Made by a program: the position numbers and the translations under genes. Below, in pieces: positions 4,029 to 40,071 of a stretch of 40,953 bases of DNA (position 1 is its first letter; each line of letters opens with the position of its first letter). The notes beneath the pieces are model-generated. The model did no database searches. It had not been told where the DNA came from and saw nothing but the letters and a program-made list of their open reading frames with translations. Location: the sequence record OQ507919.1; one strand, written 5' to 3'. Source of the stretch: Escherichia phage vB_Ec_Tarrare.

Positions 4029-4051
4029 TAATACGACTCACTATTGAGGAG
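4029..4051 (+). promoter_or_regulatory. phage RNAP promoter (phi1.1A-like)
   Basis: taatacgactcactattgaggag; T7 -17 to -1 consensus except T at -1. Confidence 0.8.
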
Positions 4052-4055
4052 TGAT

Positions 4056-4078
4056 TAATACGACTCACTAATGGGAAA
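4056..4078 (+). promoter_or_regulatory. phage RNAP promoter (phi1.1B-like)
   Basis: taatacgactcactaatgggaaa, in tandem 27 bp downstream of the first promoter. Confidence 0.8.
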
Positions 4079-4176
4079 CCTTAAGGGTCTTAGAGATTTA
4101 ACTTTAAGACCTTTAAGTTCTAATTTAAGATTTAATTTAAGATTACTAAGAGATTAACTTTAAGGAGACTTTAAGT
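4079..4176 (+). other. AT-rich region downstream of tandem promoters; candidate primary replication origin and leader of gene 1.1
   Basis: About 100 bp of low-GC sequence with reiterated tttaag / aatttaag / aactttaag units immediately after phi1.1A/B. In T7 the primary origin occupies this position. Confidence 0.4.
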
Positions 4177-4314
4177 ATGCGTAATTTTGAGAAAACTACT
4201 CGTAGCAAAGCACGTAACTGGACTTACGAAGAAGTCTACGGTAACAAAGAAGGTCGCAAGTTTAACAAGACTAAGCGTGACCGTTCTCATAAACGCAATT
4301 GGGAGGCTCAATAA
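4177..4314 (+). CDS. 1.1: gene 1.1 small basic protein
   Basis: 45 aa, MRNFEKTTRSKARNWTYEEVYGNKEGRKFNKTKRDRSHKRNWEAQ; close match to T7 gp1.1 as recalled; SD aaggag upstream. Too short for the ORF track. Confidence 0.8.
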   Translation: MRNFEKTTRSKARNWTYEEVYGNKEGRKFNKTKRDRSHKRNWEAQ

Positions 4315-4571
4315 TGGGACGTCTATACAGTGGAAACCTAAACGCATTCAAAGGTGCTTGCAATCGTCTCTATCAGATGGACTTTGCGGTAATCGTCAAT
4401 GAGTTCCACGATGCAATGTACCGTCAAGAATGCATGAAGGTACGCATAGAAGACCGAGCAGGGAACATAATCATACAGGACACCTTCTGTCACTATGACG
4501 TAGACGTCTTGTACAACACAGCCACCGCTTGGTTGAACGGTATGGCTGACCAGTTACAACACTGGAAGTAA
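4314..4571 (+). CDS. 1.2: gene 1.2 protein (inhibitor of host dGTP triphosphohydrolase)
   Basis: 85 aa from the ATG at 4314, overlapping the 1.1 stop (taATGg). MGRLYSGNL...QLQHWK matches T7 gp1.2 in length and sequence. Confidence 0.85.
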   Translation: MGRLYSGNLNAFKGACNRLYQMDFAVIVNEFHDAMYRQECMKVRIEDRAGNIIIQDTFCHYDVDVLYNTATAWLNGMADQLQHWK

Positions 4572-4591
4572 TTGAACTCACTATCGGGAGA
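4569..4591 (+). promoter_or_regulatory. phage RNAP promoter, divergent (phi1.3-like)
   Basis: taattgaactcactatcgggaga; the only candidate with C rather than T at -1 and with a weak -12 to -10 region. Confidence 0.55.
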
Positions 4592-4594
4592 ATG

Positions 4595-4622
4595 CTTAAG
4601 GTCGCTCACTGAGTGGCCTTAG
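4595..4622 (+). promoter_or_regulatory. RNase III-type hairpin (R1.3-like)
   Basis: cttaaggtcgctcactgagtggccttag; stem aaggtcgctcac / gagtggcctt. Confidence 0.5.
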
Positions 4623-4651
4623 TCGTTTAACCCTAACAGGAGACAATCATT

Positions 4652-5671
4652 ATGACTATCAAGACTAACCCATTCAAAGCTGTGTCTTTCGTAGAATCTG
4701 CCGTTAAGAAGGCTCTGGACAACGCTGGGTATCTTATCGCTGACGTTAAGTATGATGGTGTACGCGGTAACATTCTGGTCGATAACGTTTCAAATGCGCG
4801 CTGGCTCTCTCGTGTTTCTAAACCGATTCCGGCACTATCGCACTTGGACGGGTTCGACTCCCGCTGGCAGCGCCTACTGCGTGATGACCGATGCTTCTAC
4901 CCCGATGGCTTTATGCTCGATGGCGAGCTAATGGTCAAGGGCGTGGACTTCAACACTGGCTCCGGCCTACTTCGCACGAAGAACGTTAAGAAGAAGAACG
5001 AGCTACACGCTATCTATCACGATGGCGAAATGACAGACAAACTGTTCCGTCTGAACTCTAAGTTCCTTAGTGTTCGACTCTACGCAATCCTACCGATTCA
5101 CATTGTGGAATCAGGTGAGGACTTCGACGTTATGACATGCCTCATGCAAGAACACGTTAAGTATATGCTGCCTCTGCTGCGGGAATACTTTCCTGAAATC
5201 GAATGGCAAGCGGCTGAGTCTTACGAAGTGTATGACATGGTAGAACTCACTAAGCTGTACGAGAAGAAACGCGAAGAAGGTCATGAAGGTCTTATCGTTA
5301 AAGACCCATTAGGTCACTACCGTCGAGGCAAGAAGTCCGGCTGGTGGAAAATGAAGCCTGAGAACGAGGCAGACGGTATCATTCAAGGTGTTGTGTGGGG
5401 TACTGAGGGTTTAGCTAATGAAGGCAAAGTGATTGGATTTGAAGTGCTTCTAGAGAGTGGTCGCGTAGTTAACGCTTGCAACATCTCACGCGCTTTAATG
5501 GACGAGTTCACTAGCACGGTTAATACCGCTGCGGCTAAACACGAGGATGCTCCTTACATTGGGTGGGCTTGTCAGATTAGCTACATGGAAGAGACACCTG
5601 ATGGCTCTCTGCGTCACCCTTCCTTCGTTATGTTCCGTGGAACCGAAGATAACCCTACCGAAAAGATGTAA
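4652..5671 (+). CDS. 1.3: ATP-dependent DNA ligase
   Basis: 339 aa; carries the adenylation motif ADVKYDGVRG (KxDG) and is collinear with T7 ligase. Confidence 0.95.
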   Translation: MTIKTNPFKAVSFVESAVKKALDNAGYLIADVKYDGVRGNILVDNVSNARWLSRVSKPIPALSHLDGFDSRWQRLLRDDRCFYPDGFMLDGELMVKGVDFNTGSGLLRTKNVKKKNELHAIYHDGEMTDKLFRLNSKFLSVRLYAILPIHIVESGEDFDVMTCLMQEHVKYMLPLLREYFPEIEWQAAESYEVYDMVELTKLYEKKREEGHEGLIVKDPLGHYRRGKKSGWWKMKPENEADGIIQGVVWGTEGLANEGKVIGFEVLLESGRVVNACNISRALMDEFTSTVNTAAAKHEDAPYIGWACQISYMEETPDGSLRHPSFVMFRGTEDNPTEKM

Positions 5672-5678
5672 TACCCAA

Positions 5679-5708
5679 TGGCTCACCGAAAGGTGGGCCT
5701 TTTGCGTT
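5679..5708 (+). terminator. early (host RNAP) terminator TE-like hairpin plus U-tract
   Basis: ggctcaccgaaaggtgggcc followed by ttttgcgttt, immediately after the ligase stop, which is the position of TE in T7. Confidence 0.6.
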
Positions 5709-5709
5709 T

Positions 5710-5732
5710 CAATTCAACTCACTAATGGAGGA
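5710..5732 (+). promoter_or_regulatory. class II-type phage RNAP promoter
   Basis: caattcaactcactaatggagga; shares the recurring core aactcactaatggagga, whose +1 to +6 ggagga also serves as SD for the ATG 4 nt downstream. Confidence 0.5.
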
Positions 5733-5736
5733 CATT

Positions 5737-5940
5737 ATGGACTTACTGAATCCAGCTAACCCGCTCAATATGGTAAACCCTGCGTCACCTTGGTATCACG
5801 TATGGAACTCTGTACCTGAGGAATCACACACAGTGGTTACTGAACTTACCGCTGGAGAATCTTTCATTATCTACGGTATCGTAGGAGTGTTCTGCCTGAT
5901 GATCGCAGGTCTACTCTGGCTGATGCTAAGCGATATTTAA
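5737..5940 (+). CDS. small hypothetical membrane protein (gene 1.4/1.5-region ORF)
   Basis: 67 aa from the ATG at 5737 (the ORF-track start at 5725 lies inside the promoter). The C-terminal stretch FIIYGIVGVFCLMIAGLLWLML is a predicted transmembrane helix. Confidence 0.6.
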   Translation: MDLLNPANPLNMVNPASPWYHVWNSVPEESHTVVTELTAGESFIIYGIVGVFCLMIAGLLWLMLSDI

Positions 5941-5960
5941 TTAAACTCACTAATGGAGGA
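5938..5960 (+). promoter_or_regulatory. class II-type phage RNAP promoter
   Basis: taattaaactcactaatggagga. Confidence 0.6.
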
Positions 5961-5964
5961 CACA

Positions 5965-6048
5965 ATGACTTTCCTGATTATCATCATCACGATCGCTACG
6001 ATCTTTGTGTGCCTTAGCGACGACAATCATCCCGATGGTCATGCTTAA
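5965..6048 (+). CDS. 1.5: gene 1.5-like micro-protein
   Basis: 27 aa, MTFLIIIITIATIFVCLSDDNHPDGHA; hydrophobic N-terminus and a ...SDD..PDGHA tail as in T7 gp1.5 as recalled. Not in the ORF track because under 60 aa. Confidence 0.6.
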   Translation: MTFLIIIITIATIFVCLSDDNHPDGHA

Positions 6049-6068
6049 TAGAACTCACTAATGGAGGA
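6046..6068 (+). promoter_or_regulatory. class II-type phage RNAP promoter
   Basis: taatagaactcactaatggagga. Confidence 0.6.
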
Positions 6069-6072
6069 CAAT

Positions 6073-6333
6073 ATGTTTCGCTTACATTTCAACAAAAGCA
6101 TTAAGATGTTCACAGTTCGCCGCCAAGACCGCTCAATTGTATGCGCGAGCGAACGTCGAGCTAAACTTCCTATTCTTGGTAGTACAATACCTTTGGCACC
6201 TAGCGTCCACATCATCATCACTCGTGGTGACTTTCAGAAAGCAATAGACAAACAACGTCCGGTTCTTAGTGTGGCAGTGACCCGCTTCCCGTTCGTCCGT
6301 CTGTTAATCGAAAGAATCAAGGAGGTGTTCTGA
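6073..6333 (+). CDS. 1.6: gene 1.6-like protein
   Basis: 86 aa from the ATG at 6073; the conserved block [41 protein letters not shown] matches T7 gp1.6 as recalled. Confidence 0.7.
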
Positions 6334-6740
6334 TGGGACTGTTAGATGGTGCAGCGTGGGAAAAAGAAAACCCACCACTAAAAGGAGGCCATACATTGGC
6401 TTGCGATATTAACCGCTTTAATGACGATAGATACCCTTGTACCTGTAACGCTAATTCTTTCAAGGTTAGTGGTAAGAAAGCTACTGTAATCGCTACCGAC
6501 GAAATCGAAGGTGTACAGAAGCCGAGTCACTACTCGTTCTTTGATGGTATCGAAGCTATCGAGATCATTGCGCGGTCTATGACTCGCGAACAGTTTAAAG
6601 GGTACGTATTTGGGAATATTTTGAAGTACCGCTTACGTGCTGGTAAGAAATCCGAATTGGCATACGCTGAGAAAGACTTAGCGAAAGCCAACTTCTACAG
6701 TGAACTCTTTGAGAAACACAAGGATAAATGTTATGCATAA
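6333..6740 (+). CDS. 1.7: gene 1.7 nucleotide kinase homologue (short form)
   Basis: 135 aa. The N-terminus [15 protein letters not shown] and the C-terminal half [71 protein letters not shown] match T7 gp1.7, but a central segment of about 60 residues present in T7 is absent. Confidence 0.8.
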
Positions 6741-6879
6741 CTTCAAGTCTACCCCACCTTCTGACCATCTATCTGATAACTTCACAACGTGCTCAGAGTG
6801 GTGCCGTAAGATGTGGGAAGAAACGTTTGACGATGCGTACATCAAGTTGTATGAACTTTGGAAATCAAGAGGGCAATAA
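6733..6879 (+). CDS. 1.8: gene 1.8 protein
   Basis: 48 aa, [48 protein letters not shown]; near-identical to T7 gp1.8 as recalled; overlaps the 1.7 stop. Confidence 0.8.
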
Positions 6880-6880
6880 T

Positions 6881-7072
6881 ATGTCACATTTAGATACAGG
6901 TTCGCTTCGAGTGGACAACAAGAAGTTTTGGGCTACGGTAGAGACCGCTGCTCAATCGTTTGAGGTTCCTATCTACGCTACTGACTTAGACGATGCGTTA
7001 GAGCTAGCGGAGTGGCAGTATGTACCTGCTGGCTTCGAGGTCACTCGTATTCGTCCAGACGTTCGCGGTTAA
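6881..7072 (+). CDS. 2: gene 2 protein, inhibitor of host RNA polymerase
   Basis: 63 aa from the ATG at 6881, [63 protein letters not shown]; matches T7 gp2. The ORF-track start at 6728 is in frame but upstream of the real start. Confidence 0.85.
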
Positions 7073-7092
7073 TAGGACTCACTAATGGGGAC
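7070..7092 (+). promoter_or_regulatory. class II phage RNAP promoter (phi2.5-like)
   Basis: taataggactcactaatggggac, overlapping the gene 2 stop; the transcript would begin with the hairpin ggggacactcccc. Confidence 0.6.
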
Positions 7093-7133
7093 ACTCCCCG
7101 AATCACTCAATCATTACTTTAAGGAGACTCATT

Positions 7134-7829
7134 ATGGCTAAGAAGATTTTCACCTCTGCGCTGGGTACTGCTGAACCTTACGCTTACATTGCTAAACCTG
7201 ACTACGGCAACGAAGAGCGTGGCTTTGGGAACCCTCGTGGTGTGTACAAAGTTGACCTGACTATTCCCAACAAAGACCCGCGCTGCCAGCGTATGGTCGA
7301 TGAAATCGTGAAGTGTCACGAAGAGGCTTATGCTGCTGCCGTTGAGGAATACGAAGCTAATCCACCTCAGGTAGCTCGTGGTAAGAAGCCACTGCGCCCA
7401 TACGAAGGTGACATGCCGTTCTTCGATAACGGTGACGGTACGACTACCTTTAAGTTTAAGTGCTACGCTTCCTTCCAAGACAAGAAGACCAAAGAGACCA
7501 AACACATTAATCTGGTCGTTGTGGACTCTAAAGGTAAGAAGATGGAAGAAGTGCCTGTTATCGGTGGTGGCTCAAAACTGAAAGTTAAATACTCTCTGGT
7601 TCCTTACAAGTGGAACACTGCTGTAGGTGCAAGCGTTAAGCTGCAATTAGAATCCGTTATGCTGGTCGAATTGGCTACCTTTGGTGGCGGTGAAGACGAT
7701 TGGGCTGATGAAGTCGAAGAGAACGGCTATGTTGCCTCTGGTTCTGCCAAAGCGAGCAAACCACGCGATGAAGAAAGCTGGGAAGAAGACGACTCAGAAG
7801 AACAAGTAGACGAAGACGGAGACTTCTAA
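7134..7829 (+). CDS. 2.5: single-stranded DNA-binding protein
   Basis: 231 aa, MAKKIFTSALGTAEPYAYIAKPDYG..., with the acidic C-terminal tail ...EEDDSEEQVDEDGDF characteristic of T7 gp2.5. Confidence 0.95.
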   Translation: MAKKIFTSALGTAEPYAYIAKPDYGNEERGFGNPRGVYKVDLTIPNKDPRCQRMVDEIVKCHEEAYAAAVEEYEANPPQVARGKKPLRPYEGDMPFFDNGDGTTTFKFKCYASFQDKKTKETKHINLVVVDSKGKKMEEVPVIGGGSKLKVKYSLVPYKWNTAVGASVKLQLESVMLVELATFGGGEDDWADEVEENGYVASGSAKASKPRDEESWEEDDSEEQVDEDGDF

Positions 7830-8821: not shown

Positions 8822-8844
8822 TAATAGAACTCACTAATGGGGAT
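8822..8844 (+). promoter_or_regulatory. class II phage RNAP promoter (phi3.8-like)
   Basis: taatagaactcactaatggggat; the transcript start is followed by the hairpin ggggataccgaaaggcgtcccc. Confidence 0.6.
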
Positions 8845-8884: not shown

Positions 8885-10931
<2,047 letters not shown>

Positions 10932-10934
<3 letters not shown>

Positions 10935-10954
10935 TACAACTCACTAATGGAGGA
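10932..10954 (+). promoter_or_regulatory. class II phage RNAP promoter (phi4.3-like)
   Basis: taatacaactcactaatggagga, overlapping the gene 4 stop. Confidence 0.65.
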
Positions 10955-10961: not shown

Positions 10962-11174
10962 ATGTTCAAATTGATTAAGCGTTTAGGTAAGCTGGTAGTT
11001 CGTTTATATAACCGAGAAGCTACGCGACTGAATACTCAGGCTCGTGCAGAGTCCGTTATGTCTCGCTCACTGGCTGAGAAGTCCCGCGCTCTGGCTGAGA
11101 GTGCAGACAATAAGATTCGCGAAGCTGCTCACGTAGCTAACCAAGCACAACAACTGTCCAAGTTCTTTGAATAA
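10962..11174 (+). CDS. 4.3: gene 4.3 protein
   Basis: 70 aa from the ATG at 10962, MFKLIKRLGKLVVRLYN...AQQLSKFFE; matches T7 gp4.3. Confidence 0.8.
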   Translation: MFKLIKRLGKLVVRLYNREATRLNTQARAESVMSRSLAEKSRALAESADNKIREAAHVANQAQQLSKFFE

Positions 11175-15785: not shown

Positions 15786-15840
15786 CTCAAGGCCCTTATT
15801 TAATACGACTCACTATTGGGAGATAGGGGCCTTTATGATT
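15786..15840 (+). promoter_or_regulatory. RNase III-type hairpin (R6.5-like) with promoter in its loop
   Basis: ctcaaggccc ... ggggcctttatgatt; the stem arms aaggccc / ggggcctt flank the phi6.5 promoter. Confidence 0.5.
15801..15823 (+). promoter_or_regulatory. phage RNAP promoter (phi6.5)
   Basis: taatacgactcactattgggaga. Confidence 0.9.
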
Positions 15841-17479: not shown

Positions 17480-19095
17480 TGGCTAGTACCAATAAACGTG
17501 AAGGTCTCGCTGAGGAAGGCGCAAAGGCTGTGTATGAACGCCTAAAGAACGATCGCGCACCTTATGAGACTCGCGCTCAGAACTGCGCTCAGTACACCAT
17601 TCCGTCCCTCTTCCCTAAGGATTCCGATAACGCGTCTACAGACTATACCACACCGTGGCAAGCCGTGGGCGCTCGTGGTCTTAACAACTTGGCCTCTAAG
17701 CTCATGCTTGCGTTGTTCCCTATGCAGACATGGATGCGACTGACTATCTCAGAATTTGAGGCCAAACAGTTACTCAATGACCCCGAAGGACTCGCTAAGG
17801 TCGATGAGGGACTCTCTATGGTAGAGCGTATCATCATGAACTACATTGAATCCAACAGCTACCGAGTGACTCTCTTTGAGGCTCTCAAGCAGTTGGTCGT
17901 TGCGGGTAACGTCTTACTGTACTTACCTGAACCGGAAGGTGCGACTTACAATCCTATGAAACTGTACCGATTGTCTTCTTATGTAGTCCAACGAGATGCA
18001 TACGGCAACGTGTTACAGATTGTCACTAGAGACCAGATAGCTTTCGGAGCACTCCCTGAGGATGTAAGAAAGTCTGTAGAGTCTTCTGGTGGCGAGAAGA
18101 AACCGGATGAGACCATCGACGTATACACTCATGTATATCTGGACGAGGAGTCTGGAGAGTACCTCCGCTACGAAGAAGTAGAAGGTGAGGAAATCCAAGG
18201 GTCTGATGGTTCATATCCTAAGGAAGCATGTCCGTACATTCCGATTCGAATGGTTCGCCTAGATGGTGAATCCTATGGTCGTTCGTACATTGAGGAATAC
18301 CTAGGAGACCTTCGCTCCTTGGAGAACCTGCAAGAAGCTATCGTTAAGATGTCTATGATTAGCTCTAAGGTTATCGGCTTGGTTAACCCTGCTGGTATCA
18401 CACAGCCACGTCGATTGACCAAGGCTCAGACTGGTGACTTCGTTACTGGTCGCGCTGAGGACATCTCCTTCCTGCAACTGGAGAAACAGGCAGACTTCAC
18501 TGTAGCTAAGTCCGTAAGTGACGCTATCGAGGCTCGCTTATCGTTTGCATTCATGTTGAACTCTGCGGTTCAGCGTACAGGCGAACGAGTTACCGCCGAA
18601 GAGATTCGGTATGTGGCTTCTGAACTTGAAGATACTTTGGGTGGTGTATACTCTATACTTTCTCAGGAACTACAATTGCCTCTGGTGCGAGTGCTCTTAA
18701 AGCAACTTCAAGCCACGCAACAGATTCCTGAACTACCTAAAGAGGCCGTGGAGCCTACTATCAGTACAGGTTTGGAAGCTATCGGTAGAGGTCAAGACCT
18801 TGATAAGCTTGAGCGTTGTATCACTGCATGGTCTGCTCTGGCACCTATGCGTGATGACCCTGATATTGACCTTGCAGTCATTAAGTTGCGTATTGCCAAC
18901 GCCATAGGTATCGATACTTCTGGTATCCTACTGACTGACGAACAGAAGCAACAGAAGATGGCGATGCAAGCTGCTCAAACTGGTATGGACAACGCTGCTG
19001 GGGCATTGGGCCAAGGTATGGCTGCACAGGCTACTGCAAGTCCTGAGGCTATGGCTGCTGCTGCGGATTCAGTAGGTATGCAGGTAGGCATGTAA
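17479..19095 (+). CDS. 8: head-to-tail connector (portal) protein
   Basis: 538 aa from the ATG at 17479 (MASTNKREGLAEEGAKAVYERLKNDRAPYETRAQNCAQYTIPSLFPKDSDNASTDY); near-identical to T7 gp8. Confidence 0.97.
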   Translation: MASTNKREGLAEEGAKAVYERLKNDRAPYETRAQNCAQYTIPSLFPKDSDNASTDYTTPWQAVGARGLNNLASKLMLALFPMQTWMRLTISEFEAKQLLNDPEGLAKVDEGLSMVERIIMNYIESNSYRVTLFEALKQLVVAGNVLLYLPEPEGATYNPMKLYRLSSYVVQRDAYGNVLQIVTRDQIAFGALPEDVRKSVESSGGEKKPDETIDVYTHVYLDEESGEYLRYEEVEGEEIQGSDGSYPKEACPYIPIRMVRLDGESYGRSYIEEYLGDLRSLENLQEAIVKMSMISSKVIGLVNPAGITQPRRLTKAQTGDFVTGRAEDISFLQLEKQADFTVAKSVSDAIEARLSFAFMLNSAVQRTGERVTAEEIRYVASELEDTLGGVYSILSQELQLPLVRVLLKQLQATQQIPELPKEAVEPTISTGLEAIGRGQDLDKLERCITAWSALAPMRDDPDIDLAVIKLRIANAIGIDTSGILLTDEQKQQKMAMQAAQTGMDNAAGALGQGMAAQATASPEAMAAAADSVGMQVGM

Positions 19096-19115
19096 TACGA
19101 CTCACTATTGGGAGA
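19093..19115 (+). promoter_or_regulatory. phage RNAP promoter (phi9)
   Basis: taatacgactcactattgggaga, overlapping the portal stop codon. Confidence 0.9.
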
Positions 19116-20136: not shown

Positions 20137-20159
20137 TAATACGACTCACTATTGGGAGA
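20137..20159 (+). promoter_or_regulatory. phage RNAP promoter (phi10)
   Basis: taatacgactcactattgggaga. Confidence 0.9.
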
Positions 20160-24492: not shown

Positions 24493-24515
24493 TAATACGA
24501 CTCACTATTGGGAGA
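24493..24515 (+). promoter_or_regulatory. phage RNAP promoter (phi13)
   Basis: taatacgactcactattgggaga. Confidence 0.9.
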
Positions 24516-24542: not shown

Positions 24543-24962
24543 ATGATGTACATTAGGCCAACTACAGAAGGTGACATTAAGATTTTCAAACCATCACGAG
24601 AGGATAGACTTGAGGCTTTTGCTGCTGGGCATGACGCTACGTTTCCAGATGCCTCAGAGTGTGTTACTCTTTGGGGTAACGGAATGCCATTAGCTATAGG
24701 AGGTAACTGTGAGAATCAAGTTTGGTTCGTAACTAGTTATCATGTTGCACATTTGACACCTAGAGAAAAGATGGAGTTCCGAAAGGTAATCATTGAGTAT
24801 CGAGACAAGATGTTGGAACAGTACGAGACTCTTTGGAATTACGTTTGGGTAGGCAATAAGTCCCACATAAGGTTCCTCAAGACTATCGGTGCAGAGTTCC
24901 ATGAGGTCTACGGTAATGATGGTCAATTCCAGTTATTCACAATAAAGAAGGAGGCAACATGA
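24543..24962 (+). CDS. 13: gene 13 protein (internal virion / assembly protein)
   Basis: 139 aa; conserved blocks FPDASECVTL..PLAIGGNC, WFVTS, YRDKMLEQYETLWNYVWVGNKSHIRFLKTIGA as in T7 gp13 as recalled. Confidence 0.8.
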   Translation: MMYIRPTTEGDIKIFKPSREDRLEAFAAGHDATFPDASECVTLWGNGMPLAIGGNCENQVWFVTSYHVAHLTPREKMEFRKVIIEYRDKMLEQYETLWNYVWVGNKSHIRFLKTIGAEFHEVYGNDGQFQLFTIKKEAT

Positions 24963-25354
24963 AGCTCTGCAAGAAGTGTAACACAGTGAAGCCTATGGAC
25001 GAGTTTCACAATAAGAAAGGTAGGAAGGATGGTAAGGCGTCTACTTGTAAAGCCTGTGTCAACAATAGAGTGAGACCTTACGATTCCGAGAAGAACAAGA
25101 ACATGCACTTGAAGAAACTGTATGGTATAACCCTTGATGAATACAACGCTATGTTGGAAGCTCAAGGTCACTGCTGTGCAATCTGCAAAGGAACCGAAGG
25201 GATGAAGCTCGGTAGGAACATGGCGGTAGACCACTGCCACACAACGGGTAAAGTCCGAGGGATACTTTGCTCCCACTGTAATCGTGGCTTAGGGTTCTTC
25301 AAGGACAACATTGAGAGCCTCAAAGCTGCCATTAAGTATCTAGGAGGTGAATGA
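24959..25354 (+). CDS. Endonuclease VII-family (T4 gp49-like zinc-binding) nuclease, probable free-standing homing endonuclease
   Basis: 131 aa; CxxC ... HCCAICKG ... DHCHTTGKVRGILCSHCN is the Endo VII His-Cys box; start ATG overlaps the gene 13 stop and the stop overlaps the gene 14 start. T7 has no gene at this position as far as I recall. Confidence 0.8.
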   Translation: MKLCKKCNTVKPMDEFHNKKGRKDGKASTCKACVNNRVRPYDSEKNKNMHLKKLYGITLDEYNAMLEAQGHCCAICKGTEGMKLGRNMAVDHCHTTGKVRGILCSHCNRGLGFFKDNIESLKAAIKYLGGE

Positions 25355-31200: not shown

Positions 31201-32229
31201 AAGTACGGTACTCAGGAGATAGCTGCTCGTTCCCCGTTCACTAAGTTACTTAACGCTACCTCTAACGTTATCGTCGATACTGCTCGTCAAGGGTTCTTAG
31301 GTAACATCGTTGAGTCTGCCCTTATGGGTAAGAAGTCCAAGTGGGGCGCTGAGCCTTTCCTTAAAGCTGCTTCGGTAACTCCTGAACAGTGGGAAGGTAT
31401 TCAGAGACTCATTCGTGACCACATGGAGTTGGGTACTGACGGGAAGTACCATATGCGAGACCAGAAGGCGTTTGCCTCAGACCCACGCAGTATGGACTTA
31501 TGGCGACTGGCTGACAGAATGGCAGACGAGACAATCCTGCGTCCTCACAAGGTATCCTTACAGGACACTAGTGCGTATGGTGCGTTAGTCAAGCTTGCTG
31601 CGCAGTTCAAAGCGTTCTCCATCAAGTCACTTAACTCTCGTCTGATAAGGGCTTATTACGATGCAACCAAGAATAACCGAGCGATTGATTCGGCTATGGT
31701 ATTGGCTGTAAGTAGTGGTTTGGGTCTAGGGATGACAGTACTGACCTCTCAGTTGAAGGCTTTAGGTCTACCTGAGAATGAGCGTAAGGAGTACTTGGAG
31801 GGTATCATGAACCCTACTATGCTGACATATGCTTCACTGGCTCGTAGCTCTCATACTGGTTCTGCGTTTGCATTGGCTGACATGCTAGGTGCTCCGTTCG
31901 GTTATAGCATGATGAAGGACTTGCGTACATCCATCGTACCACGTCCAGAAGCCGAGAAGGATACCTCAAAGGTTCCTACTCCAAAGTCTATGGCTGATAC
32001 CATCATGGGTAACTTAGGACAACAGATTCCGGCGTTAGGATTCGTTGGTGCTGTAGGTGCTACTGGCGTAGGTATCAACAAGTACCTAACGGCTGACACT
32101 AGCGCTCAACGTCAAGAGTCTCTTACTGGAATGTGGGGTGCTATGAGGAACTTAGTACCTAACGATCCGATCACTCAACAGCTACTTCTGAACATCTACG
32201 AATCTCAAGGGATCGACGTAAGGAAGTAA
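28255..32229 (+). CDS. 16: internal virion protein D with N-terminal lytic transglycosylase domain (gp16)
   Basis: 1324 aa with a GTG start after SD aggagg; MDKYDKNVPNEYDGLFQKAADANGVSYDLLRKVGWTESRF...GPLGMMQFT is the SLT-type motif; collinear with T7 gp16. Confidence 0.95.
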   Translation: MDKYDKNVPNEYDGLFQKAADANGVSYDLLRKVGWTESRFKPDAKSKTGPLGMMQFTKATAKAMGLKVTGGADDERLNPELAINAAAKHLGQLVQKFDGDELKAALAYNQGEGRLGIPQLEAYARGDFAKISAEGRNYIRNLADVARSPMSAKLEEFGGITPKAKGIPADVAFKGIDKKGSVGDTLPESTGMNLVGKEQEAKAKPFAKDFWEKRGETISEYEDRGIWSGFGESVKSEVHNSVLGMAVRTAASGGGMDVFMDSITPTRWNSHVFSEEELTKIRKEVKNPAYLNVVTGGSTETIDDLIKLANENYEADMKAAGSGVAAQLTAGVLGVAIDPTSWIPVAGAAGKGFKLVKKALVVGAESAAMSAVSEGLRTSYIGGEADYQNAMLGGFVFGSGMSALSDAVGNALRKRGVTDTDIPQNEFLGPLARMEARETALNANSLDLSRMKTDTLQFQEGAHGVKFADHPVEAGAVILEDGSIISAGNPLNPKAFKEYQQLEAKVTPKARAGVNLGGFTEIGQTILRSDNESIRKIGSDLVRSPLGLEDMSGGKFGATASDIHERIHYVDQRTYRQLDGLMKEALKDPEFSVGIFKTSREGAQQEIFKRVALAIERPELQTNLTKGELDILKVVKEHFDSKRELMENPAMFGNSKAVSIFPESRHKGTYVPNVYDTTAKNLSIQRMGSAEALQKAIADSWIVSYHARPEVKARVDESLKEVLGVEEVTLDMVNKYAMDKAYGISHSDQFQVSSVLEENLGITNAGLEGIENNSFLEARNLFDSDMPITLPDGTTFAVNDLRSFDMFKIMPAYDRRINGDIAIMGGTGKTTKELKDEINMLRQQAKGNGKLEKEANALGDVVKMLTGRARRGADNQLEIMARSLSDLSFATKNAYMGLMNLSEVASMIAKGNLRGVMANIPYVRDMAYRKHPLAPEELREISSSFFGVEIDQTLRPSRADIIQRIRETTSSQGITADILGTVKYGTQEIAARSPFTKLLNATSNVIVDTARQGFLGNIVESALMGKKSKWGAEPFLKAASVTPEQWEGIQRLIRDHMELGTDGKYHMRDQKAFASDPRSMDLWRLADRMADETILRPHKVSLQDTSAYGALVKLAAQFKAFSIKSLNSRLIRAYYDATKNNRAIDSAMVLAVSSGLGLGMTVLTSQLKALGLPENERKEYLEGIMNPTMLTYASLARSSHTGSAFALADMLGAPFGYSMMKDLRTSIVPRPEAEKDTSKVPTPKSMADTIMGNLGQQIPALGFVGAVGATGVGINKYLTADTSAQRQESLTGMWGAMRNLVPNDPITQQLLLNIYESQGIDVRK

Positions 32230-32249
32230 TACGACTCACTATTGGGAGA
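32227..32249 (+). promoter_or_regulatory. phage RNAP promoter (phi17)
   Basis: taatacgactcactattgggaga, overlapping the gene 16 stop. Confidence 0.9.
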
Positions 32250-32303: not shown

Positions 32304-34229
32304 ATGGCTAACGTAATCAAGACCGTTTTGACTTATCAGCTAAATGGTACTACTCGTGATTTTAATATTCCGTTTGAGTATCTGGCTCGTAAGTTTGTTG
32401 TGGTCACACTGTTAGGTAAAGACCGTAAGGTACTTACTCTGAATACTGATTATCGATTTGCAACTCGTACTACCATCTCCACCACTAAGGCTTGGGGACA
32501 GGCAGATGGTTACACTCACATTGAGTTACGCCGAAACACCTCAGCGACTGAACGCTTGGTGGACTTTACTGACGGTTCGATTCTACGCGCGTATGACCTG
32601 AACGTTGCTCAGATTCAGACTATGCATATTGCAGAAGAAGCTCGTGACCTTACTGCTGATACTATCGGTGTCAACAACAATGGGGACTTAGATGCTCGAA
32701 ACCGTAAGATTGTAAACTTGGCAGACGCGGTTAACCCTCGTGATGCTGTCCCTCTAGGTCAGATTCAGGGGATAAACCAGAATGCTTGGCAAGCACGAAA
32801 TGAGGCTCAACAGTTCAGAAACCAAGCTGAGACCTTTAAGAACCAAGCCCAAGGTTTCCGTAACGAAGCAGAAGCGTTCCGAAACACTACTAACCAGAAC
32901 GCACAGACTACTACAGCCGATCGTGCAGCCGCTCTACAGTCAAAGGAAGAAGCTGAGCGCGCTCGTGCTGCTGCCCAACAGTCACAACAACAGGCTGCTG
33001 CATCTCAGACAGCCGCAAGTAACTCAGCCGCTGAGGCTAAGCGTGAAGCAGATCGCTCCAAAACAGAGGCTGATAGGGCTAAAGTAGAGGCCGATAAGTT
33101 AGGAAACTGGAACCAACTTGCAGGTACTGTGGATAACGTGACTGGTACTAGCGTGACCTTTAAGGACAAGGTAGGTGCTCTAGGTGGGTTCGTATCGGCT
33201 ACTCCTGATGGATACCGATTGAAGTACACTAACTTCTCTACGATTCTACGTCAAGACGCTAATGCGTTCTACATACTGACTACCAATAAGGGAGATGTTA
33301 ACGGGCCATTCAACTCGCTACGTCCTATGTACATTGACAACGCATCGGGATGGGTGACGTTTGGTAACGGTGCGGGTGTTAATGGTAGACTCACTACGAC
33401 AGAGGGTGTTGCGGTTCCTAACTCTAAGATGTACTTCAACAAGAGCCTGATTCAGTTGGAGAGCCAGAACTTCACAGACAGGGCGGTGAACATGCGAGTT
33501 TGGGGTAACGCCTCAGGTCGTAATAACGTGTGTGAATGGGGCGATGCTCACGGTTGGCTGATGTATGTACAGCGTAGGGATTGGAATGCTAACGCTGGGT
33601 CAAACATCCAGTTAAGTGTTAACGGACAGGTGGTGGCTAATAACATTATATCCACTGGAGGGGCTTACTTCCAGAATGGACATGCTGTAACGCTGGAATC
33701 TGCGTCCAATATGGCACACTACATCATCTCTAAGGATGGCGGCAGGAACAACTGGTACGTTGGTCGTGGGACTAATGGCAACAATGACGTCGCTCTCCAC
33801 TCTTATGTACACGGAACTACTCTTTCTCTACGCCAGAACTATGCGCAGGTCAACAAGCACTTCTATGTAGGCTCCGCTGTAGTAGCAACTGATGGTAACG
33901 TTCAGGGTACTAAATGGGGCGGTAAGTGGCTTGATGTGTTCCTGAATGATACATACATTAAGAAGACCAAAGCTTGGACTCAGGTATGGTCTGGAAGTGC
34001 TGGTGGTGGTGTCAGTGTGACCGTATCCCAAGACTTGCGATTCCGTAATATCTGGATTAAGTGCGCCAACAACTCTTGGAACCACTTCCGTACAGGCCCT
34101 GATGGTATTTACTTCATTGCGTCTGATGGTGGCTGGTTGCGATTCCAGATTCACTCCAACGGTAGAGGCTTCAAGAACATTGCAGACAGTCGCTCTGTTC
34201 CTCAGGCTATCATGGTGGAGAACGAATAA
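32304..34229 (+). CDS. 17: tail fibre protein
   Basis: 641 aa; N-terminal tail-attachment domain (MANVIKTVLTYQLNGTTRDFNIPFEYLARKFVVVTL) and C-terminal tip (...WIKCANNSWNHFRTGPDGIYFIASDGGWLRFQIHSNGRGFKNIADSRSVPQAIMVENE) match T7 gp17; the central part differs and is longer. Confidence 0.95.
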   Translation: MANVIKTVLTYQLNGTTRDFNIPFEYLARKFVVVTLLGKDRKVLTLNTDYRFATRTTISTTKAWGQADGYTHIELRRNTSATERLVDFTDGSILRAYDLNVAQIQTMHIAEEARDLTADTIGVNNNGDLDARNRKIVNLADAVNPRDAVPLGQIQGINQNAWQARNEAQQFRNQAETFKNQAQGFRNEAEAFRNTTNQNAQTTTADRAAALQSKEEAERARAAAQQSQQQAAASQTAASNSAAEAKREADRSKTEADRAKVEADKLGNWNQLAGTVDNVTGTSVTFKDKVGALGGFVSATPDGYRLKYTNFSTILRQDANAFYILTTNKGDVNGPFNSLRPMYIDNASGWVTFGNGAGVNGRLTTTEGVAVPNSKMYFNKSLIQLESQNFTDRAVNMRVWGNASGRNNVCEWGDAHGWLMYVQRRDWNANAGSNIQLSVNGQVVANNIISTGGAYFQNGHAVTLESASNMAHYIISKDGGRNNWYVGRGTNGNNDVALHSYVHGTTLSLRQNYAQVNKHFYVGSAVVATDGNVQGTKWGGKWLDVFLNDTYIKKTKAWTQVWSGSAGGGVSVTVSQDLRFRNIWIKCANNSWNHFRTGPDGIYFIASDGGWLRFQIHSNGRGFKNIADSRSVPQAIMVENE

Positions 34230-35298: not shown

Positions 35299-35299
35299 T

Positions 35300-36139
35300 A
35301 TGGCCCTACACGAAGTCAACCTGTGGAATTTCAATTCCCGCACACATTCGTCTCTCGACGTTGGAGCGCCTTACGGTGGCCTCTACTCTGGACGCATAGA
35401 CTTACCTGAAAGTTACCGAAAGTCTAAGATGTTCAAGGTTAGAGTTTCTGGAACACACGCTCTAGAGACCTACGCTAGCTATTCTGCTATGCTTACAGGA
35501 ATCGGAGGAACGTCGGTGTCAAACCTAAATGGTAGAGAAGCGATCATTGAGTTTAACACATCGTCCTCAACAAACGGGTTGCGAGGCATCTACTCCGTAG
35601 AGGGCGTGTTTGTTAGGGATTGGCATCCAGACGAAGCGTTGACAAAAGGTGCCGCCGAGATGTTCATAAAGCCGCATGGTGTAGACGAGTACGTTTGGAC
35701 TGGTTCTCAGTCTGTAGGTAACGGCTCAGAGTTAAACCTATTGTCCCTAAACGGGTTCTCTACCGATGTTGCCACTGGAGCCACTACCATTAACGCTGCG
35801 TCTCTTGTGGTGCTTCCTGCGGAGGTGAAGAGTAGAGGGCTGATCATTTCTGTAATCCTAGATGGCACTTATGACCAACAAGGGCCACATGAGATGAAGG
35901 TTCAGATACGAAGCGCTGATGGTAAGACGTTGCAACAATCTAGCCCATTGTATGTTCTGGACAAGAACGTCAAGAAGCTTACCGCAACATTTGCAGACTA
36001 CACCCTTGGTGTGTATGACGAAAGTAGTACCACTGGATTTAAGCTTGTATTTATCAATGATAGTACATCCAATATGTCACTGACTGGTGTACGAATCGTT
36101 GTTCAAAATATCTCTAATCCAGACTTCACACGTTCTTAA
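35300..36139 (+). CDS. hypothetical protein, no T7 counterpart (first gene of a two-gene late-region insertion)
   Basis: 279 aa ORF; SD aaggag 7 nt upstream of the ATG, which sits 1 nt after the Rz stop. Rich in S/T/G/N/V and apparently beta-rich; no signal peptide, transmembrane helix or catalytic motif recognised by eye. Confidence 0.8.
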   Translation: MALHEVNLWNFNSRTHSSLDVGAPYGGLYSGRIDLPESYRKSKMFKVRVSGTHALETYASYSAMLTGIGGTSVSNLNGREAIIEFNTSSSTNGLRGIYSVEGVFVRDWHPDEALTKGAAEMFIKPHGVDEYVWTGSQSVGNGSELNLLSLNGFSTDVATGATTINAASLVVLPAEVKSRGLIISVILDGTYDQQGPHEMKVQIRSADGKTLQQSSPLYVLDKNVKKLTATFADYTLGVYDESSTTGFKLVFINDSTSNMSLTGVRIVVQNISNPDFTRS

Positions 36140-36154
36140 AGAAGGAGAGTTAAA

Positions 36155-37267
36155 ATGTTAGTTACTCGAACGGCAACTTACACCGATTGGATATTCATGG
36201 CTGCTCACGCAAACGAGAGGGTCGATGACATTGGTCAAGGTCTCTTAGAGGGTCATATTTATTTCCGTTATGCCTATGACATGCTGAACGATGGTGACGA
36301 GGTAGTACGAGAGGTATCACATGTACATCTTAGCGATGGGTCAACATACCCTCTAGGAGAAGGAGTGTCCTCCGAAAAGATAGACATCACGTACCACGGT
36401 CTCACTAGTGATGGTAGCGTATACCTTGAGGTTAATGGACATAAGGGAATTGGTGTTAGTAGCATTACTCGTACCCTGACCATTCAATATGACGATGGGA
36501 AGGTTCCTGTTCTGGACACTGACCAACTCAAAGGGATTCTTTCAGAACTTCATGACAGCCTTGAGGCTAGTATGATTAATACCGCAAACGCTGTCAAAGA
36601 GGAACTGCGAGACGAGTTGGAAACCAAGGTGCTGGACGCCAAGGAGTCCTGCAACGAGGCTACCGAGGCTGTTAACACCGAGTTGACCGCCAAGATCGCA
36701 AATGAGAGTGGTCGCATTGATAGCCTAACGAGTACCCTTGTGACTGTTCAGGGTAACTTGGATACTACCATGAAGCGCGTTGGTAAAATCTCTCCCAATA
36801 TGGGTAAGTGGTCTTTCGGTCGATACACCATCAACTCGAAGCAGACCAACAACTTACTGGCTGCTGCGCCTACAGCGTTGGCGCCGGAAGGGTCTATCTT
36901 CACATATGATGATACCAACAAGGTCTTTAAGATGTCTGGAGGTGCTGCCCCAACAGACAGGATTCTGCGGGTTACGTTCACTACAGGGATTGACACGTTG
37001 AGTGCTGACTACCGAGGATACTTATCGTTCATGCTGCGAAACTCCAGTGGTGGAGTCTTGGCTAGCGACATGAGGTTCCTAAACATGGATGCTGGTCTTA
37101 CCCAACAACTGAGCGCCATACAGTTCAGCCTTGAGCTATACTTAGAGGCGTCTAAAGGTCATCCAGTATACAACTCAGGTATCCAGTTAGCTTTCCACAA
37201 CAGTGCTAACACGGCTCTTGCCATACTGTCCGGTGGTGTTGCAAGCTTCACCTTACTGACAGCTTAA
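36155..37267 (+). CDS. hypothetical protein with central coiled-coil segment, no T7 counterpart (second gene of the insertion)
   Basis: 370 aa ORF; SD aaggag 8 nt upstream. Residues ~121-210 (DTDQLKGILSELHDSLEASMINTANAVKEELRDELETKVLDAKESCNEATEAVNTELTAKIANESGRIDSLTSTL) look alpha-helical with a heptad-like pattern, flanked by beta-rich N- and C-terminal regions. Confidence 0.8.
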   Translation: MLVTRTATYTDWIFMAAHANERVDDIGQGLLEGHIYFRYAYDMLNDGDEVVREVSHVHLSDGSTYPLGEGVSSEKIDITYHGLTSDGSVYLEVNGHKGIGVSSITRTLTIQYDDGKVPVLDTDQLKGILSELHDSLEASMINTANAVKEELRDELETKVLDAKESCNEATEAVNTELTAKIANESGRIDSLTSTLVTVQGNLDTTMKRVGKISPNMGKWSFGRYTINSKQTNNLLAAAPTALAPEGSIFTYDDTNKVFKMSGGAAPTDRILRVTFTTGIDTLSADYRGYLSFMLRNSSGGVLASDMRFLNMDAGLTQQLSAIQFSLELYLEASKGHPVYNSGIQLAFHNSANTALAILSGGVASFTLLTA

Positions 37268-37288
37268 TTTAAATAAAGGAGGGACGCT

Positions 37289-39052
37289 ATGTCTTATACC
37301 CAAAGTAACCGCAATGCTCTCATTGTGGCTCAACTAAAGGGTGACTTCGTAGCGTTCCTATTCGTCTTATGGAAGGCGTTAAACCTTCCGGTTCCTACCC
37401 GTTGTCAGATTGACATGGCTAAGGTATTGGCGAATGGGGACAACAAGAAGTTTATCCTACAGGCTTTCCGTGGTATCGGTAAGTCATTCATCACTTGTGC
37501 GTTCGTTGTGTGGACGTTATGGCGTGATCCTCAGATGAAGATACTCATTGTGTCTGCCTCTAAGGAACGTGCTGACGCTAACTCCATCTTCATCAAGAAC
37601 ATCATTGATTTGCTGCCTTTCCTTGCTGAGTTGAAACCTCGCGCTGGTCAACGTGACTCTGTGATTAGTTTTGACGTAGGCCCTGCTAAGCCTGACCATT
37701 CTCCTAGTGTGAAGTCCGTAGGTATCACTGGTCAGTTGACTGGTAGCCGTGCTGACATCATCATTGCGGATGACGTTGAGATTCCGTCTAACAGTTCCAC
37801 TATGGGCGCTCGTGAGAAGCTCTGGACTCTCGTTCAGGAATTTGCTGCATTGTTGAAACCTCTGGAGACCTCTCGTGTTATCTACCTTGGTACGCCTCAG
37901 ACAGAGATGACTCTCTATAAGGAACTTGAGGACAACCGTGGTTACACTACGATTATCTGGCCCGCTCTTTATCCACGCTCTAAGGAGGAAGACTTGTACT
38001 ACAGCAACCGTCTGGCTCCTATGCTCCGTGAAGAGTACAATGAGAATCCAGAAGGTCTTGCAGGTACTCCTACTGACCCTGTACGATTCGATACTGACGA
38101 TCTTCGTGAGCGTGAGTTGGAATACGGTAAGGCTGGCTTCACTTTGCAGTTCATGCTTAACCCTAACCTTAGTGATGCCGAGAAGTACCCTCTGAGGCTC
38201 CGTGACGCGATCGTAGCGGCTCTGGACTTAGAGAAGGCCCCAATGCATTACCAATGGCTCCCGAACCGTCAGAACATTATTGAGGACTTACCTAACGTTG
38301 GTCTTAAGGGTGATGATCTACATACGTATCATGAGTGCTCCAGTAACTCTGGTCAGTACCAACAGAAGATACTTGTGGTTGACCCTAGTGGTCGCGGTAA
38401 GGACGAAACAGGTTACGCCGTGTTGTACACTCTGAACGGCTACATCTACCTAATGGAAGCTGGTGGTTTCCGTGAAGGTTACTCCGATAAGACCCTTGAG
38501 GCTCTCGCTAGGAAAGCCAAACAGTGGAAGGTTCAAACGGTTGTCTACGAGAGTAACTTCGGTGACGGTATGTTTGGTAAGGTGTTTAGTCCTATCCTTC
38601 TTAAACATCATAATTGCATCATGGAAGAGATTCGTGCTCGTGGTATGAAGGAAGTACGTATTTGTGATACCTTAGAGCCTGTCATGCAGACTCACCGCTT
38701 GGTTATCCGAGATGAGGTCATTAGGGCAGACTATCAGACTGCTCGTGATGCTGACGGTAAACATGATGTCAAATACTCGCTGTTCTACCAGATGACTCGC
38801 ATCACTCGTGAGAAAGGTGCTCTTGCTCATGATGACCGATTGGATGCCTTAGCGTTAGGCGTAGAGTTCCTACGTGAGTCCATGCAACTGGATAGCGTCA
38901 AGGTTGAAGGTGAGGTGCTTGCAGACTTCCTTGAAGATCACATGAGTCGTCCAACTATTGGCGCTCAGAGTATCATTGAGATGTCTTTAGGTGGTATCGA
39001 CTTGTACGCAGAGGATGAAGGCTGGGGTAACTCTCAGTTCATCGAATGGTGA
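37289..39052 (+). CDS. 19: terminase large subunit (DNA maturase B)
   Basis: 587 aa; ATPase and nuclease regions; collinear with T7 gp19. Confidence 0.97.
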
Positions 39053-39075
39053 CTTATGCATAGATAGTGCATAAG
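39053..39075 (+). repeat. perfect inverted repeat immediately after the terminase stop
   Basis: cttatgca-tagatag-tgcataag; 8-bp arms, 7-nt loop. Confidence 0.7.
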
Positions 39076-39133
39076 GATTCACTTTAGGCCACGGAAGGCC
39101 AATACCCTAAGTTGTTGAATAGACACGATAAAT

Positions 39134-39156
39134 TAATACGACTCACTATTGGGAGA
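39134..39156 (+). promoter_or_regulatory. phage RNAP promoter (phiOR-like)
   Basis: taatacgactcactattgggaga, between genes 19 and 19.5. Confidence 0.9.
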
Positions 39157-39298
39157 GGAGGGACTAAAGGTTACATATAGTGTACTGAATGCATAAACAT
39201 AAAGTGCATAAAGTATGCATACCTAATACCCTTAGAGGATGGTTGTTATATTGATATTAATACAACCTTAACTTAAGGAACAACATAAGGAGGCCATA

Positions 39299-39448
39299 AT
39301 GTTCCGCACAGTGTTGAACCTATTGCGGCATAGAGTGACCTACCGCTTTCTTCTGGTACTTGTTGCTGCCCTTGGGTTCTCATCTCTTACTACAGACCTC
39401 AGTACACTGGAGTCTACCGTTTGTTCTGTATTCACTTGTGTCGATTAA
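39299..39448 (+). CDS. 19.5: gene 19.5 protein
   Basis: 49 aa, MFRTVLNLLRHRVTYRFLLVLVAALGFSSLTTDLSTLESTVCSVFTCVD; near-identical to T7 gp19.5 as recalled; SD aaggagg. Too short for the ORF track. Confidence 0.8.
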   Translation: MFRTVLNLLRHRVTYRFLLVLVAALGFSSLTTDLSTLESTVCSVFTCVD

Positions 39449-39519
39449 GATAATGATCGAACGCTAAGCTCACCGAGGGATTCGAAGGTATGATTACATC
39501 ACACCATCTCATCCCTATA

Positions 39520-40010
39520 GAGTCAAGTCCTAAGGTTATACCTATAGGCCCTCTAATGGTCTATCCTAAGGTCTATACCTAAGGGTAGGCCATACCTATT
39601 GGCTACCTAGAGATAAGCCTAAGGAGGCTCCTAGAGAGGCCCTAAGGAGTCCTTTAAAATATACCATAAAAATCTGAGTGACTATCTCATAGTTTAAACA
39701 TTTGGATTTACCCCCATAGGGTCACTTCAAGTCCCATAAAGACATCCCCATCCTAAGGTTTCTACTCAAAGAGAGACCATAGGAGACCTTGAGAGACCAT
39801 AAAGAGGTGGGTAGTGTGGTACTTTGAGTTATCTATAAGTGTGTCTCTATGTGTTCCTATCTGTTATCACTCCTAAGGTATCCTCTTAAGGTCATATCCT
39901 AAGGTCATCTCTTAAGGTATCAACATAAGGAGGAGGAGACTACACTTAAAGTATATACATAAAGACCACATAAAGACCATACATAAAGTGTATACATAAA
40001 GATGCCTTGT
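39520..40010 (+). repeat. genome-end non-coding region with arrays of short direct repeats (cctaaggt / ccataaag / cataaagac units)
   Basis: No ORF of 60 aa or more; reiterated heptamer-like units such as tcctaaggt (at least 6 copies) and cataaaga (4 copies at 39950-40000), corresponding to the CCTAAAG / CATAAAGAC arrays inside and next to the T7 terminal repeat. Confidence 0.6.
39685..39877 (+). repeat. approximate single-copy terminal repeat / concatemer junction (physical genome ends)
   Basis: tctcatagt ... acccccataggg ... gtgtctctatgtgttcctatctgttatcactcctaagg parallels the T7 terminal repeat (TCTCACAGTGT...CCCCCATAGGGGG...GTCTCTCTGTGTCCCTATCTGTTACAGTCTCCTAAAG) as recalled. Boundaries are inferred. 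Confidence 0.3.
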
Positions 40011-40048
40011 AGTTAGCTATAGAGAGTTATCTCTAATCATGGTCTTAT

Positions 40049-40071
40049 TAATACAACTCACTATTGGGAGA
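40049..40071 (+). promoter_or_regulatory. phage RNAP promoter (phiOL-like)
   Basis: taatacaactcactattgggaga (A for G at -11), in the same relative place as T7 phiOL. Confidence 0.75.

Follow-up and report, generated by a model that had tools for sequence, protein, structure and literature searches.

T7 RNA polymerase (RNAP) is, together with its promoter, a standard tool of RNA synthesis. Work on promoter specificity has dealt mostly with the duplex recognition region, and the sequence of the melted segment from -4 to -1 is far less understood. The bubble opens at -4, with a hairpin of the polymerase wedged at -5/-4, and -1 lies in the TATA segment, which is melted in the open complex and untranscribed. 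Among the 17 promoters whose coordinates are annotated in the T7 record V01146, which was used for the comparisons with T7 described here, 16 have A at -1. We analyzed this position in Escherichia phage vB_Ec_Tarrare, classified by the NCBI taxonomy as Rindgevirus tarrare, genus Rindgevirus, subfamily Studiervirinae. The stretch of DNA analyzed (the window) is the complete T7-like genome of 40,953 base pairs (bp). Over most of the genome nucleotide identity to T7 is about 80%, with complete gene-for-gene synteny, and the record is a circular permutation relative to T7, with phiOR at 39134 and phiOL at 40049. Sixteen sites, which would be promoters for the phage's own gene 1 polymerase, were found in the window. 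T is present at -1 in 15 of them and C in one; with A at 16 of 17, classical T7 does not have -1T as its standard. The sites are given below, the first coordinate of each being position -17.

4029..4051, + strand: promoter at the phi1.1A position, TAATACGACTCACTATT GAGGAG (...TATT GAGGAG)
4056..4078, + strand: phi1.1B orthologue, TAATACGACTCACTAAT GGGAAA (...TAAT); the downstream flank ccttaagg...tttaactttaag is common to T7
4569..4591, + strand: phi1.3 orthologue, the sole -1C site, TAATTGAACTCACTATC GGGAGA; flanks nearly identical to those of T7 phi1.3
5710..5732, + strand: promoter without T7 counterpart, CAATTCAACTCACTAAT GGAGGA; an ATG 4 nucleotides (nt) after GGAGGA opens a small open reading frame (ORF) ending at 5940
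5938..5960, + strand: promoter at the phi1.5 position, TAATTAAACTCACTAAT GGAGGA; ATG 4 nt later
6046..6068, + strand: phi1.6 orthologue, TAATAGAACTCACTAAT GGAGGA; ATG of gene 1.6 at 6073
7070..7092, + strand: phi2.5 orthologue, TAATAGGACTCACTAAT GGGGAC, with GACTCAC rather than AACTCAC; T7 phi2.5 is also -1T
8822..8844, + strand: phi3.8 orthologue, TAATAGAACTCACTAAT GGGGAT; the downstream flank cccctttgttcgcgttggagg is common to T7
10932..10954, + strand: phi4.3 orthologue, TAATACAACTCACTAAT GGAGGA; ATG of gene 4.3 at 10962
15801..15823, + strand: class III promoter, phi6.5 orthologue; only -1 differs from T7
19093..19115, + strand: class III promoter, phi9 orthologue; only -1 differs from T7
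20137..20159, + strand: class III promoter, phi10 orthologue; only -1 differs from T7
24493..24515, + strand: class III promoter, phi13 orthologue; only -1 differs from T7, and the 20 nt downstream are identical to T7
32227..32249, + strand: class III promoter, phi17 orthologue; only -1 differs from T7
39134..39156, + strand: phiOR orthologue; only -1 differs from T7, and the flanks are T7-type, not Berlinvirus-type
40049..40071, + strand: phiOL orthologue, TAATACAACTCACTATT GGGAGA, with A at -11 as in T7 phiOL

The original prediction had placed 16 phage-polymerase promoters at these points, 15 of them with T at -1, and this was borne out both by a pattern search and by a weight matrix. The matrix was built from the 16 sites themselves and used to scan both strands of the whole window. 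The sites scored 30.5-39.4 bits and every other position on either strand remained below 8 bits; the promoter set is therefore complete and sharply bounded. No match to the 23-mer pattern was found in 100 shuffles. Alignment of the sites agreed that 4569 is the only one with C at -1. Each site is located immediately upstream of a gene. The initiating base is G in all 16 promoters and 15 of them start with GG; judging from alignment with the mapped T7 promoters, transcription should start at the G designated +1. It had also been proposed that all nine strong sites read taatacgactcactatTgggaga. The exact sequence TAATACGACTCACTATTGGGAGA is present at six sites only (15801, 19093, 20137, 24493, 32227 and 39134), whereas 40049 has A at -11, and 4029 and 4056 depart in the initially transcribed bases or at -2. 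Positions -17 to -5 keep the T7 consensus, -12 to -8 being CGACT or a near variant. This conservation, combined with that of the promoter-contacting residues of the polymerase (see below), argues that Tarrare carries a T7-specificity promoter set.

Fifteen of the sites could be paired with T7 promoters by position and flanking sequence, the partners being phiOL, 1.1A, 1.1B, 1.3, 1.5, 1.6, 2.5, 3.8, 4.3, 6.5, 9, 10, 13, 17 and phiOR. T7 phi4c and phi4.7 have no partner in Tarrare, where a search for degenerate versions of them was negative, and 5710 is an extra site present only in Tarrare. The base at -1 differs in 14 of the 15 pairs (A in T7, T or, at phi1.3, C in Tarrare), the exception being phi2.5, which has T in both phages. 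No difference was seen in any pair at positions -16 to -14, -10 to -6, -4, -3 and +2, and in the six class III pairs -1 alone is different. Differences specific to individual promoters at -13 to -11 and +3 to +6 persist alongside the -1 change. In other respects the two sets are alike: they share the 23-bp architecture, the consensus from -17 to -5, the flanks and the use of the promoter TAA as a stop codon of the upstream gene. The flanks have diverged as expected for genomes about 20% apart, yet are recognizably T7-type and not Berlinvirus-type. The -1 changes therefore arose in place, as point substitutions at the same position of each promoter.

The promoter-initial TAA serves as a stop codon at five sites, namely 4569 (gene 1.2), 5938 (ORF 5725-5940), 10932 (gene 4), 19093 (gene 8) and 32227 (gene 16). 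The same arrangement is present at the gene 8/phi9 junction of T7.

The -1T state was also found in five contigs of uncultured relatives, which came from other samples or sequencing runs. Their polymerases belong to the same 90%-identity cluster as that of the window; the cluster has 15 members, and its representative is 94% identical to the window's polymerase. All five contigs have T at -1 at every promoter except phi1.3, which has C, and -1T is constant among them while -2 varies (A, T, C). By these comparisons -1T is most probably a selected, lineage-wide state. The lineage-specific signature which had been postulated is therefore non-random and common to the lineage (14 of 15 pairs and five relative contigs); it is not unique to it, since Kvp1, Berlin, fPS-59, Ninurta and other phages have it as well.

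Drift cannot give a pattern of 14 parallel changes at one position with the other core positions invariant. Gene conversion of short tracts between promoters, the other way in which an effectively neutral -1 could have become uniformly T, would require tracts of a few bases, as the promoters have kept their own differences at -13 to -11 and +3 to +6 as well as their T7-type flanks. Neutrality would be in line with the little or no base preference of T7 RNAP between -3 and -1 (PMC7948468) and with the mixture of A and T within single genomes of the Teseptimavirus phages IME15 and Ebrios, in which -1 is T at five class II promoters and C at phi1.3, the class III promoters all having A. It agrees poorly with the retention of C at phi1.3 across lineages, and with that of -1T among relatives with polymerases down to 94% identical and a varying -2. 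Overall, we consider a neutral origin of the uniform T quite improbable.

Irrespective of the base used in the rest of the genome, the -1C of phi1.3 is kept in Tarrare and its relatives, in IME15 and Ebrios, and in two uncultured -1A lineages. The sites are at 4569-4591 in the window and at 6638, 6630, 13072, 11821 and 6513 in L116, L117, L118, L123 and L124, respectively. At several of them the next base is A (TATC AGGAGA), suggesting an A start. The -1C looks like a promoter-specific constraint, for which none of the explanations offered here accounts.

The class II promoters had been described as having a distinct core. In T7 the class II core, ACTCACTAAAGGAG, reads ...ACTCACTAAA GGAG(A/G), and GGAG at +1 provides the Shine-Dalgarno sequence for a gene beginning a few nt further on; this layout is present at phi1.5, 1.6, 4.3 and 4.7. 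The Tarrare sites read ...CTAAT GGAGGA at 5710, 5938, 6046 and 10932, where ATG follows GGAGGA after 4, 4, 4 and 7 nt, respectively, and ...CTAAT GGGGAC and GGGGAT at 7070 and 8822. The latter two are about 46-47 nt away from the next gene, which has a Shine-Dalgarno sequence of its own, and the proposed double use of ggagga at six class II sites is thus true of four. The Tarrare sites are the T7 elements with A replaced by T at -1, plus variation at -13 to -11 which T7 class II promoters also show. The class II core is therefore an ordinary one and not distinct, and the location of the Shine-Dalgarno sequence in the leader, already found in T7, is inherited.

T at -1 is known outside Rindgevirus. 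A scan of IMG/VR for ACTCACTATTGGGAGA returned 32 stretches, mostly contigs of about 38-41 kb which are apparently isolate genomes. In the Berlinvirus Kluyvera phage Kvp1 (GenBank FJ194439) -1 is T at 10, G at 4 and A at none of the 14 annotated promoters, and in Yersinia phage Berlin it is T at 11 and G at 2 of 13 sites; promoter logos for both phages have been published (PMC2579914). The exact Tarrare 23-mer TAATACGACTCACTATTGGGAGA is present at phi1.05 and phi10A of Kvp1 and at 5139 and 20099 of Berlin. These phages also share with Tarrare the ...CTAAT GGGAGA variant, and the Tarrare sequence fits the Berlinvirus-type consensus TAATACGACTCACTA[T/A]T GGGAGA. Identity of the 23-mer could be explained by import of -1T promoters through recombination with a Berlinvirus-like phage. 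However, the flanks of the Tarrare promoters match T7 and are unrelated to those of Kvp1 and Berlin, the sequence downstream of phi13 continues as in T7 for 20 nt, and the likeness to T7 extends over the whole genome at about 80% nucleotide identity. Tarrare belongs to another genus, its polymerase is 75-76% identical to the Berlinvirus ones (75.5% to that of Berlin) and lies on the other side of the tree, and -1G, which Berlinvirus uses, never occurs in it. Import is refuted by the flanks, and we give it next to no credence.

Two more genera use -1T. In Yersinia phage fPS-59 (Helsettvirus) it was present at all 8 sites found, and Dickeya phage Ninurta (Ningirsuvirus) has CCATGCGACTCACTATT GGGAGA at most sites. 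Both resemble Tarrare in having TATT G from -4 to +1 at most of the sites found; they differ in their polymerases (72-73% identical) and, in the case of Ninurta, in the upstream recognition sequence, CCATGCGACTCAC. Loci L088 and L090, considered as K1F-like candidates, were ruled out as such, being Ninurta and a relative. In T7, IME15 and Ebrios -1T is used, as in Tarrare, together with a T7-specificity polymerase, and the phi2.5 orthologue has T in all. There, in contrast to Tarrare, only a minority of the class II promoters have T (5 of 18-19 sites in IME15 and Ebrios) and A is kept at every class III promoter; T7 phi2.5 starts with A at +1. T3-like loci have A or C at -1, and K11-like loci, KP32-like loci and a group with 64% identity have A. 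By these sequences -1 is a recurrent 'dialect' position of T7-group promoters: T7 and phages of the K11 and KP32 kinds use A, T3-like phages use A or C, and those on the Berlin side use T or G. A literature search for the -1T 16-mer gave no match. As -1T is already used by other T7-like genera and is accepted by T7 RNAP (see below), it is a habit of lineages and not a new kind of promoter.

The direction of the change was considered on a neighbour-joining tree of polymerases with 200 bootstrap replicates. Tarrare and its relatives formed a clade in 100% of the replicates, and this clade was placed, also in 100%, inside a group with T7, IME15, P0004 and the uncultured P0005, P0006, P0010 and P0011. 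The T3-like polymerases joined this group with 99% support and addition of the K11-like and KP32-like ones was supported by 100%, with Berlin, Kvp1, fPS-59 and Ninurta remaining outside. The P0005, P0006, P0010 and P0011 polymerases are 84-86% identical to the window's, and the DNA of these lineages is predominantly -1A, with T at phi2.5 and C at phi1.3. One of these four lineages, L123, has in common with Tarrare two ORFs located between genes 18.5 and 19, but at its phiOR the sequence is ...TATA GGGAGA. Because the Tarrare polymerase is nested among those of -1A lineages, the shift looks independent of the Berlin-side one. The simplest reading of the sequences would be a derived A-to-T sweep in the Rindgevirus stem, with the Berlinvirus, Helsettvirus and Ningirsuvirus lineages reaching the same state on their own. 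Within the subfamily there appear to have been at least two such flips from A to T.

The polymerase expected to read these promoters is encoded directly upstream of the first of them.

1369..4023, + strand: gene 1, T7-type single-subunit RNA polymerase of 884 amino acids (aa), 88% identical to T7 RNAP over the full length

The sequence at 1369-4020 is identical to WEU68248.1, and the product has Pfam domains PF14700 and PF00940, the top PDB matches being 1CEZ, 1QLN and 2PI4. No isolate polymerase closer than T7 RNAP was found in the phage collection searched. It was suggested originally that -1 co-varies with the specificity region or that initiation kinetics are altered. The former, taken to cover the AT-rich recognition loop as well, would mean a changed and in part orthogonal specificity. 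The two polymerases do differ at 107 positions, K740R, I743V, E768G and T101V among them. Nevertheless, R746, N748, R756 and Q758 are unchanged, as are W422 and its neighbours, and N748, R756 and Q758 have been reported as promoter-base contacts (PMC5937735). T3-like and K11-like specificity loops differ from T7 at contact residues, whereas that of Tarrare does not. Furthermore, IME15 and T3-like polymerases, which serve promoters with A or C at -1, also have K740R, I743V/L and E768G; T101V, the only difference in the AT-rich loop, is found in T3-like -1A/C phages as well. The -1 base is outside the duplex read by these loops (PMC5937735), and the consensus from -17 to -5 has been kept. Altered specificity is consequently very improbable as the cause of the -1T state, and co-variation with the two loops is largely refuted.

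Differences between the two polymerases are densest in the intercalating hairpin, where 16 of the 31 residues from 226 to 256 are changed, including V236N, V237A, G238A and Q239A. The hairpin tip was considered as a correlate of -1T and rejected. An identical tip, AGNAAAD, is present in the group with 64% identity, whose promoters are -1A (...ATCACTATA GG); the T3-like phages (-1A/C) have the tip NAGNAGSD; and within the Tarrare lineage the tip is NAAAD or HVASD while -1T is constant. An early screen gave 15, then 6 alignment columns with disjoint residues in -1T and -1A lineages, K49 being the only single shared residue. The initial candidates, K49 included, dropped out of the lineage-fixed differences once four more -1A lineages had been added.

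Thirteen substitutions fixed in the Tarrare lineage occur in none of the 23 nearby -1A polymerases: E108T, T121C, T122A, T132V, S139A, L229V, G238A, I244V, P248D, A382S, D591E, N601V and S628G. Three of them (229, 238 and 244) are in the intercalating hairpin, and S628G is located next to the arginines holding the initiating GTP, four residues from R632, for which contacts with this GTP and with the template strand have been described (PMC13148922). The 13 substitutions are candidates only. One or a few of them might set a kinetic preference for template A at -1 which the Rindgevirus polymerase would have evolved independently of the Berlin-side lineages; this suggestion is tentative and we give it rather less than an even chance. 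If it is true, Tarrare and T7 are a natural near-isogenic pair for mapping preferences in the initiation region, with a possible use in in vitro transcription.

Two published data sets describe the response of T7 RNAP to T at -1. In a barcoded library the -1 A-to-T single mutant, represented by one barcode, gave 73.3 against a wild-type mean of 169 ± 19, or about 43% (PMC5937735, supplementary file S2). A saturation scan with a fluorescent reporter showed no base-pair preference from -3 to -1, apart from a slight one at -1, which 'preferred a T-A base pair (over A-T)' (PMC7948468). The activity of T7 RNAP on -1T thus differs from wild type by no more than about two-fold, up or down. Therefore -1T is not a specificity switch, and the Tarrare and T7 polymerases are likely to cross-recognize each other's promoters.

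In the structures of T7 initiation complexes the template base at -1 stacks near W422, under the +1 template base, and a purine at this point could stabilize the initiating complex. The explanation that we favour, with a little better than an even chance, is that the sites are T7-specificity promoters in which T at -1 arose by a selected change, made in place, to the optimum of the lineage polymerase. The -1 base would have changed from A to T promoter by promoter in the Rindgevirus lineage, and selection would then have held T. The most likely reason would be a modest quantitative optimum of the lineage polymerase for template-strand A at -1. It could be exerted through stability of the open complex, through positioning of the template base at +1 or through the way in which the initiating GTP stacks; the choice of promoters recognized would not be changed.

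A number of observations weigh against this explanation. In the column comparison across the subfamily no residue co-varies with -1T in all -1T lineages, and with about two independent -1T origins such tests are almost without power. In IME15 and Ebrios a single polymerase serves both -1A and -1T promoters, and T7 RNAP tolerates -1T (PMC7948468). Uniform T might therefore need no change in the polymerase at all. In addition, the direction of the change is taken from a distance tree of one protein, and this phage group is known to be mosaic; the literature searched yielded no experiment with the Tarrare polymerase.

Selection could also have acted on the quality of initiation and not on its strength, resulting in cleaner 5′ ends from GGG starts. 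With A in the template at -1, pppGG would be prevented from slipping back on a G-T wobble, and a purine start at -1 would be impossible, as UTP would be needed; alternatively, -1 could tune the sensitivity to lysozyme gp3.5. The -1 base is untranscribed and any effect must be exerted on the DNA-polymerase complex. Start-site choice and slippage are governed by the -1 bases in the homologous human mitochondrial enzyme (PMC11642874), and the G starts of all Tarrare promoters (GG in all but one) would suit such a mechanism, which is speculative for T7-type enzymes. On the other hand, Berlinvirus tolerates G at -1 of several promoters, and the longer G run should make slippage worse. We regard both forms of this proposal as unlikely and prefer adjustment of -1 to the optimum of the polymerase.

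In a close T7 relative, as the comparison indicates, A can give way to T at -1 of every promoter, save for the one with C, while the rest of the promoter remains fixed. This points to a weak but real lineage-specific selection at -1, and it provides a short list of candidate polymerase residues. It also allows better annotation of promoters in Rindgevirus and related phages, and is a warning that the promoters described here would all escape a T7-consensus search demanding TATAG. In practical terms the gain is modest. It is not a new regulatory principle: Rindgevirus adds to a known promoter variant, with a modest hint of convergent change at -1.

Several other features of the window were observed. 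An ORF for an HNH endonuclease (40039-40548, with a probable ATG near 40105; Pfam HNH_3, E = 3e-20) is located directly downstream of the phiOL-like promoter at 40049. No HNH-annotated gene is present between gene 19 and the ocr gene in the gene lists of the relatives L118, L119 and L122, suggesting that the ORF could be a mobile insertion of a homing endonuclease under the control of phiOL. When the ends of the window are joined (40888-40953 to 1-102), a 55-aa ORF spans them, with a weak likeness to the N-terminus of ocr (gene 0.3) of relatives (37% over 46 aa). An ORF crossing the ends indicates that the record is a circular permutation cutting the early region. Judging from the sequence, the full-length ocr found in relatives seems to be truncated or absent in Tarrare.

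Between genes 18.5 and 19, a point at which T7 lacks ORFs, there are two, 35300-36139 (279 aa) and 36155-37267 (370 aa). Both are without a Pfam match, and only one gave a PHROG match, a weak one of unassigned function; the two are conserved in the lineage contigs as well as in L123, the -1A sister contig. One GenBank phage record is 95-99% identical to part of window 1-25000, presumably a short shared segment. An endonuclease VII ORF at 24959-25354 (Pfam Endonuclease_7, E = 3e-26) lies between genes 13 and 14, a point at which T7 has no gene; in Berlin a similar ORF is found within the DNA polymerase gene. Finally, the tail-fibre gene 17 (32304-34229) encodes 641 aa, compared with 553 aa in T7. 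Its product has the T7 N-terminal domain followed by T4 gp34-/gp37-like trimerisation and C-terminal domains, and it aligns with T7 gp17 in the C-terminal part only, at 74%.

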